The notes under the pieces are model-generated. The model made no database searches. It was given only the letters and a program-made list of their open reading frames with translations, and had not been told where the DNA came from. This document shows, piece after piece, positions 43,816 through 45,226 of a stretch of DNA of 64,000 nt. Numbering within the stretch: the first letter of the stretch is position 1; the number at the start of each line of letters is the position of its first letter. The stretch lies in the sequence record NC_014792.1. One strand, written 5' to 3'. The position numbers were made by a program, and so were the translations under genes. The DNA is from Escherichia phage vB_EcoM_VR7.

Positions 43816-45099
43816 ATGACACAAACTACAGGTGAAAAAGAAGGCGTATTTTACGGTTATTCTCTTTATGATTTGAATAAAGAAAAACTAATAACTTTTG
43901 ATGAATTACTTACGGGTATTCAAGGAGAGCCCGGAGAAAATGGCGATATTGGACCAAAAGGTGACCAAGGCCCTGTGGGACCACAGGGTATTCAAGGGGA
44001 TACAGGTCTTCAAGGAGTTCCAGGAGAAAATGGTGCTATTGGACCAAAAGGTGACCAAGGCCCTGTGGGACCACAGGGTATTCAAGGGGATACAGGTCTT
44101 CAAGGAGTTCCAGGAGAAAATGGTGCTATTGGACCAAAAGGTGACCAAGGTATTCAAGGGGATACAGGTCTTCAAGGTATTCAGGGACCACAAGGACTAC
44201 AAGGAGACCCGGGAACGCAGGGTCCACAGGGTATTCAAGGTCTAAAAGGAGATAAAGGCGACCAAGGTATTCAAGGTGAAACAGGTGCTCAAGGTATTCA
44301 GGGTATTCAAGGAGTTCCGGGTGCCAAAGGAGATATAGGCCCAGTCGGTCCGGCAGGTTTAACATGGAAAGGTTCTTGGAATATTGCAACTGCTTACGCA
44401 GTTAACGAAGCCGTTGGACACGATGGAAGCCTATATTTCGCCACAGCTGAAAGCACCGGACAAACTCCTTCATTAGGTAGCGATTACTGGGAAGTCTTAG
44501 CAACGGAAGGGCCTGAAGGTCGGCAGGGCGTAGAAGGCGCGCAGGGTCCACAGGGTATTCAAGGTCCACAAGGTATTCAAGGACCTAAAGGTGATACGGG
44601 TGAAACTGGACTACAAGGTCTTAAAGGCGACAAAGGAGAGGCAGGTTTAACCGGACCACAAGGACTCCAAGGTATTCGTGGCGAACAAGGAGAAACGGGC
44701 GCACCGGGTATTCAAGGTATTCAGGGTATTGCTGGAGACCAAGGTCCTAAAGGTGACACGGGCGACAAAGGTGATACAGGTGCCACTGGTCCAGCCTACG
44801 AGTATAAAAAAGTATCTAGATTTACAATGCCTGCCGCTGGTATATCAAATTCTACTCCTTTATTCGATTCAGGATTAACAATAAGTATGTTAGGCGTCAA
44901 AGCTAATACATTTAGATTTACCCTTACTAATACAGGTTCAGCGTCTAGAGTTATTGATGGTGAAATAATTTATTTTGACCCGGACGGTACAGCAAAAAGA
45001 TTTGTTGTTCATTTTTCAATAGCTGCTGGTGAGACAACCAATTTTCGGTACGTACACGTATGCAATTACAACTCCCAGAGTTTTTACTTTAAATTTTAA
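43816..45099 (+). CDS. Collagen-like (Gly-X-Y repeat) protein with non-collagenous C-terminal domain
   Basis: 427 aa; GGAGGA RBS; long uninterrupted G-X-Y tracts in two blocks; ~100-aa C-terminal beta-rich domain. Confidence 0.8.
43933..44184 (+). repeat. Near-perfect 90-bp tandem DNA repeats (about 2.8 copies) inside the collagen-like gene
   Basis: Unit ggagaaaatggtgctattggaccaaaaggtgaccaaggccctgtgggaccacagggtattcaaggggatacaggtcttcaaggagttcca starts at 43933, 44023 and 44113; the third copy lacks 18 bp. Confidence 0.85.
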
Positions 45100-45226
45100 T
45101 GCTACTGGGACTACACAACACGCCCACGAAGTAAAATATTTTATAATAGGACGCGACGGTTATACGGAAAATACTTCTGTTGGTGCTACTGTTACTATTG
45201 AAAAACTCTATAACTAAGGACTACAA

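Follow-up and report, generated by a model that had tools for sequence, protein, structure and literature searches.

A one-base frame break, probably a sequencing error, in the collagen-like fibre gene of Escherichia phage vB_EcoM_VR7

Results

Layout of the fibre locus

We analysed a stretch of 64,000 nucleotides from Escherichia phage vB_EcoM_VR7 (sequence record NC_014792.1), here called the window, whose backbone is 96.7% identical to that of phage VR25 (genus Gaprivervirus). As judged from the list of open reading frames (ORFs), the region around 43816-45217 has the head-gene layout of a T4-like phage. Gene names around the locus were transferred from the VR5 and VR25 annotations and coordinates were taken from the ORF list:

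40783-42066, + strand: second of two gp24 paralogues
42087-43091, - strand: rnlB
43215-43478, - strand: 24.2-like gene
43475-43678, - strand: 24.3-like (VR7 gp195-like) gene
43816-45099, + strand: collagen-like ORF, 427 aa
45029-45217, + strand: GTG-initiated ORF, 62 aa
45227-46045, + strand: Hoc-like head-decoration paralogue, 272 aa, exact match to VR7_gp197, phrog_1149 Hoc-like (E=1.8e-57)
46071-47186, - strand: hoc
47202-47882, - strand: inh
47898-49436, + strand: uvsW

The tandem gp24 paralogues (capsid vertex, window ~39500-42066) are about 65% identical at the DNA level (39934-40764 vs 41215-42051) and are annotated in VR25 as capsid vertex proteins I and II. The two Hoc-type genes, 45227-46045 (+) and 46071-47186 (-), are convergent. 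The 272-aa paralogue has a C-terminal capsid-binding region like that of Hoc (…IHPL…YIW.GWWVMD…VQESRNG…) and different N-terminal Ig-like domains. Between the two genes lies a perfect GC-rich hairpin (AAAGGGCC-TTGC-GGCCCTTT, 46047-46066), which is flanked by T-runs and is likely a bidirectional terminator.

Architecture and family of the collagen-like protein

The first 410 codons of the collagen-like gene encode an N-terminal domain of ~35 aa, followed by two Gly-X-Y collagen segments around a non-collagen insert of ~47 aa, and close with the first 83 residues of a C-terminal beta-rich domain. The Gly-X-Y repeats match Pfam PF01391 (Collagen, E=1.5e-41, five stretches), and the protein matches phrog_5073, 'tail fiber protein' (E=6e-120). 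Phage VR5 carries the same gene at the same place, annotated as 'tail fiber protein' YP_009205873.1 (AVV69_gp229, 'similar to bacteriophage VR7 gp196', phrog_5073), within the common order 24.3-like gene, collagen-like gene, Hoc-like gene, hoc. The position between the 24.3-like gene and the Hoc-like paralogue is likewise common to VR5, ESCO10, VR25 and a Logan contig (SRR22213611, here L004), and a Hoc-like neighbour is also found in VR26 and KIT01. The VR7 gp196 and VR5 gp229 proteins are thus members of a small family of collagen-like 'tail fiber' proteins, a label that is an annotation transfer for a putative function. A literature search on VR7 gp196 or on a collagen-like protein beside hoc returned nothing relevant, the VR7 genome paper lying outside the literature covered. 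Exact-sequence look-up of the 427-aa, 62-aa and repaired 466-aa proteins gave no match, and the annotated collagen-like proteins of VR5, ESCO10 and VR25 were equally unmatched, so that the lack of a match carries no weight.

The N-terminal domain (...F.ELL), which stands directly before the first collagen segment, is 94-100% identical over the aligned residues to those of ESCO10, VR5, VR25 and VR26, 90% to that of KIT01 and ~50% to rV5-like and Kosakonia phage proteins. The same ~35 aa (43816-43920) are ~50% identical to 'tail fiber' proteins of unrelated large myoviruses, among them Cronobacter phages CR3, CR8 and PBES02, Pectobacterium phage P7_Pc and the POP phages, Salmonella phage SSBI34, Escherichia phage A7_1 and Kosakonia phage 305. 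The domain may be a portable virion-attachment module.

A 90-nt tandem repeat at 43911-44150 (2.7 copies, 95% identity) codes for 30-aa collagen units. VR5 has one such unit fewer (433 vs 466 aa), and the length of the fibre is therefore polymorphic through repeat copy number. The insert between the two collagen segments (44359-44499) resembles the W..Y..GD.V...G..Y.A....G..P....W pattern of carbohydrate-binding modules of the CBM5/12 type; Pfam gave no match to it.

An overlapping 62-aa frame without the marks of a gene

Does the small frame that overlaps the 3' end of the collagen-like gene represent a feature of its own? An earlier note, made from the sequence alone, had described a GTG-initiated ORF of 62 aa in the +1 frame relative to the 427-aa ORF. 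Both this ORF and the peptides quoted from it were recovered as described, with an overlap of 71 nt counting the stop codon. The note offered three explanations: a tandemly duplicated C-terminal module now out of frame, a programmed frameshift, or a sequencing indel. The last of these holds in kind, as a sequencing indel or simple one-base frameshift (one extra T relative to three relatives), whereas the duplication is rejected and a programmed frameshift lacks support.

The idea of a duplication came from a perceived likeness of the +1 peptide to the C-terminal segment that precedes it in the collagen-like protein, an impression that rests on a shared 'FTL' and 'YF' only. Aligning the two segments, as the note had suggested, revealed no detectable similarity: BLASTP returned no alignment at E<=100, and Smith-Waterman scores of 22-24 equalled the mean of 5000 shuffles (p = 0.36-0.69). 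Tandem Repeats Finder (TRF) found no repeat in 44600-45250, and in the homologues the two segments are consecutive parts of one beta-sandwich domain of ~140 aa. We consider a decayed duplicate practically excluded.

An independent small gene starting at GTG 45029 is hardly more credible. The ORF has 62 open codons and a permissible start codon. However, the 19 nt upstream of the GTG (catttttcaatagctgctg) contain no purine-rich Shine-Dalgarno sequence, the 62-aa ORF alone matches no PHROG or Pfam profile, and VR5, ESCO10 and L004 have no separate ORF here, the sequence being kept in longer proteins alone, as their C-terminus. The +1 frame is open from ~45020, just 5' of the GTG, and its first six codons read the main-frame codons one position on. 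We reject the 62-aa ORF as a gene, a duplicate or a recoding product; it follows from an ordinary one-base frame break.

Homologues read through the junction in one frame

Evidence for such a break comes from the relatives. When the C-terminus joined across the two frames (...ETTNF|GTYTY..., 138 aa) was used as a tblastn query against phage genomes, VR5 (100% identity) and ESCO10 (84.8%) each matched in one piece and in one frame. Both are annotated with a single coding sequence at the locus (433 and 454 aa, respectively) that ends at the stop equivalent to 45215-45217, and in both the Hoc-like gene starts 9 nt past this stop. The window shows the same arrangement: from the TAA at 45215-45217 the Hoc-like ATG at 45227 follows after 9 nt, preceded by an AAGGA at 45216-45220 that overlaps the stop.

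In total, five independent relatives contain one continuous ORF ...ETTNF|GTYTY...EKLYN, i.e. VR5, ESCO10, L004 and two more distant proteins, P0008 and P0011. A word-indexed homologue search, with a single sequence as well as with a profile, found the L004 protein only (P0001, with the C-terminal domain in one frame), and an exhaustive HMMER search added P0008 to P0011. P0008 (512 aa, 53% identity) and P0011 (287 aa, 30%) have the architecture of collagen plus C-terminal domain with the junction in one frame; P0008 also keeps the non-collagen insert and P0011 the N-terminal domain. In the protein alignment, residues of the +1 frame are conserved across the family (GTYTY..T..R.FT..FN.TG....F.IGR...T.NT..GA..IEKLY).

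Removal of one T makes the C-terminal domain contiguous and yields a protein of 466 aa that aligns end to end with the 433-aa VR5 protein with 426 identities. The sole gaps amount to 33 residues and all fall within the collagen repeats; the two proteins share the N-terminal domain, the collagen segments and the non-collagen insert, and without the extra T their C-terminal 138 aa match at 100% identity. On the repaired protein the phrog_5073 profile crosses the junction and reaches position 514 of 519. An AlphaFold model of the repaired C-terminal 139 aa, computed from a four-row alignment (pLDDT 68.5, pTM 0.67), predicts a single beta-sandwich of about ten strands in which strand 80-87 spans the junction at 83/84, while a model from the single sequence was poor (pLDDT 53.8). 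Because the homologues, the phrog_5073 profile, the repaired alignment and the model are all continuous across the junction, we conclude that the +1 frame is the true end of the gene and that 45047-45217 is the authentic stretch of its last 56 codons.

L004 departs from its relatives elsewhere in the gene. Its collagen part (L004 1845-2600) is considerably reduced in length, and a TGA stands in frame (…GGTCCTGTGTGACCACAA…) at the place of GTGGGA in the window, so that gene callers split this locus into ORFs of 54 and 129 aa. The TGA may be a short-read repeat-collapse or assembly artefact, or a second independent disruption of the collagen-like gene.

The break lies in a run of four T

The comparison with the relatives resolves the 3' part of the gene into the following elements:

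43816-45045, + strand: collagen-like fibre gene of the VR7 gp196 family, codons 1-410 in the annotated frame; last codon Phe TTT, 45043-45045
45029-45046, + strand: first six codons of the mechanical +1 ORF (GTG, M-R-Q-P-I-F); +1 reading of main-frame codons, not a real start
45042-45045, + strand: TTTT run with one T too many, the frame break; VR5, ESCO10 and L004 have TTT
45046-45099, + strand: spurious out-of-frame tail of the 427-aa ORF, 17 codons plus TAA; no homologue, aligns with nothing
45047-45217, + strand: true 3' end of the collagen-like gene in the +1 frame, 56 codons plus TAA 45215-45217

The window reads CAATTTTCGG at the break, and the aligned VR5 and ESCO10 DNA reads CAATTTCGG. 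Across 341 nt, TTTT vs TTT is the single difference between the window and VR5. L004, a third independent assembly, reads accaatttcgg and thus also has TTT. The earlier note had pointed to the T-rich runs in the overlap, and the string agtttttactttaaatttt is indeed present at 45079-45097; these runs are identical in all relatives, and the break lies 35-50 nt upstream of them. Scans of viral contigs for the junction pattern with either TTT or TTTT returned VR5 alone, with TTT, and the same scans of metagenome and genome contigs returned none.

In the record, the extra T in 45042-45045 shifts the last 56 codons into the +1 frame and leaves the annotated frame to end in 17 meaningless codons. ORF 43816-45099 and the +1 ORF 45029-45217 are one gene, coding for a 466-aa collagen-like fibre protein of phrog_5073. 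The peptide DGYTENTSVGATVTIEK, read in the +1 frame, would belong to the +1 product. As the record is written, the C-terminal domain (~140 aa) is split after residue 83 and does not run on from the collagen part in one reading frame. The 172 nt 3' of the break are 100% identical to VR5, so that the break is either not real or very recent.

Frameshifting at the break

Could ribosomes join the two frames? In the mutant frame AAU_UUU_CGG, a UUU in the P site could re-pair with UUC, and the shift-prone U_UUU_C is followed, exactly at the break, by CGG. This is the rarest Arg codon in the long ORFs of the window (12 of 15,851 codons, 0.76 per 1000, 1.9% of Arg codons), in which the only tRNAs encoded are tRNA-Arg(UCU) and tRNA-Met. 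UUU-pyrimidine sites are reportedly prone to +1 shifts. The arrangement shares with prfB the +1 direction and a P-site codon prone to slipping ahead of an A-site codon that is decoded slowly, and it would be compatible with a programmed +1 frameshift that makes two products from one gene. In contrast to prfB, it comes without homologue conservation, without a Shine-Dalgarno stimulator at the right spacing and without regulatory logic. The relatives with a continuous ORF are all in frame (5/5), which means that the family has no conserved programmed frameshift, and the zero-frame tail is without a homologue. The Shine-Dalgarno-like stimulator that prfB has ~3 nt upstream is missing, the sole such string near the break being GGUGAG at 45028-45033, which ends 9 nt before the UUU codon. 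Moreover, a truncated beta-sandwich, as the model predicts, seems unlikely as a useful second product. We regard a programmed frameshift as highly improbable; the shift-prone arrangement may be a chance product of the insertion.

Transcriptional slippage was set aside, as known slippage tracts are far longer than a run of four T.

A different role of the ribosome arises if the extra T is present in the phage. A slowly decoded codon in the A site promotes +1 shifting, and there are documented cases in which frameshifting compensates for an indel at a low level (PMC5009743), an example of such 'corrective' frameshifting being the G-run mutants of the herpes simplex thymidine kinase reviewed there. 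By analogy, +1 slippage of tRNA-Phe from UUU onto UUC, before the rare CGG, could give a small fraction of protein of wild-type sequence, perhaps in a few per cent of ribosomes. The case differs from the thymidine kinase mutants in that the run has only four T and there is no sign of selection. A stronger version, in which the T is real and tRNA-Phe slippage at U_UUU_CGG supplies a controlled minority of full-length fibre whose display is tied to the host supply of tRNA-Arg(CCG), appears to us very unlikely. Slippage at this site, if true, would represent a compensatory frameshift that arose adventitiously in an accessory structural gene of a T4-like phage.

Sequencing error or real mutation?

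The remaining question is whether the phage itself carries the extra T. To our knowledge, at the time of genome annotation there was no known homologue of the collagen-like gene to expose the break. We compared the window with VR25 over most of the window length and checked each isolated small indel in 4-5 relatives. Six further small-indel loci emerged at which the window alone deviates from all 4-5 relatives:

gp9: 19224, TT vs TTT; 19237, AAA vs AA; 13 nt apart
gp17 (terminase): 29597, AA vs A; 29603, T vs TT; 6 nt apart; EV to RS
trna.3-like: 3327, GGG vs GG; ~3346-3351, 1-nt deletion placed in a T-run, TTTT (window) vs TTT; ~20-24 nt apart in a locally divergent stretch
gp48: 56506-56520, 5-nt duplication plus AAA vs AA
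intergenic: 7482, TT vs TTT
intergenic: 58168, C5 vs C4

Nearly all of these anomalies are homopolymer-length changes. Within genes they form +1/-1 pairs whose members compensate each other at a distance of 6-24 nt, which alters 2-8 residues. Base calling classically produces artefacts in which one miscounted homopolymer is offset by another a few bases away, and the anomalies at gp9, gp17, trna.3, gp48, 7482 and 58168 look like artefacts of this kind in the record. Their number is also out of proportion to the substitutions: in the 11-kb stretch 19000-30000 the window has four lineage-specific 1-nt indels next to 36 lineage-specific substitutions, compared with 0 indels and 296 lineage-specific substitutions in VR25, TH57 and VR20 together (hypergeometric p ~2e-4). 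Given this excess of lineage-specific homopolymer-length anomalies, we infer that the extra T most likely arose as a base-calling or assembly error in the record. It resembles the homopolymer and compensating double-frameshift errors of older records in being a one-base homopolymer change that is unique to the record, with others elsewhere in it. It differs from the compensating double-frameshift errors in that the extra T is unpaired and therefore breaks the ORF.

A less likely but plausible account is that the T is real, i.e. that 1 nt was recently inserted in the phage stock and truncated an accessory fibre gene. The collagen-like/Hoc-like cassette is dispensable: it is absent from VR20, and in several other relatives the match to the query ends after its first 42 nt, still 5' of the gene, which means that they do not carry it. 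Since the cassette is accessory, a real knockout would be viable and tolerated in culture. A very recent event would agree with the identity to VR5 downstream of the break, and where the window aligns to VR25, in an alignment that leaves out most of the fibre gene, no other gene is broken. Furthermore, the anomalies elsewhere in genes are compensated pairs, unlike the extra T at 45042-45045, and these pairs could in principle also be real. The UUU codon in the P site before CGG, which permits +1 slippage, would offer a partial rescue of the kind known from compensatory frameshifting (PMC5009743). Against this account stand the excess of unique homopolymer-length anomalies resembling base-calling errors in the same record and the scans of viral, metagenome and genome contigs, in which TTTT occurred in no independent sequence. 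If the T were real, truncation would remove residues 84-139 of the 139-residue C-terminal region, roughly four to five of the ten predicted strands, and the 427-aa product, deprived of ~40% of the modelled beta-sandwich, would probably be non-functional.

The main consequence concerns annotation. VR7 gp196 is best described as one protein of 466 aa, encoded by 43816-45217 minus one T, and no gene should be called for the 62-aa ORF, given that the 427-aa product and the small ORF both stem from one doubtful base. The suspicious homopolymer-length differences inside the essential genes gp9, gp17 and gp48 call for caution with the protein sequences of this record. Should the T turn out to be real, this phage would offer a naturally occurring knockout of an accessory fibre gene, useful for asking what the collagen-like and Hoc-like cassette does.

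A comparable split occurs in another record. Shigella phage SP18 (L010 699-2509) has a lineage-specific 1-nt deletion at the equivalent of window position 19769, and the annotation divides its gp10 into two ORFs, a hypothetical protein of 53 aa and gp10, which is likely a frameshift artefact or mutation in an older record.

Probable exchange of the cassette next to hoc

The Hoc-like paralogue always occurs together with the collagen-like gene (VR5, ESCO10, VR25 and L004), and VR20 has neither. Rather than being a 'tail fiber', the collagen-like protein may be associated with the head. The region 44001-47515, which comprises the 3' two-thirds of the collagen-like gene, the Hoc-like gene, hoc and part of inh, is 96.6% identical to VR5 (genus Dhakavirus). 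The neighbouring rnlB (41960-43118), in contrast, is only 74.6% identical to VR5 and ~90% identical to VR25. This mosaic pattern of identity points to a recent exchange of the cassette between genera.
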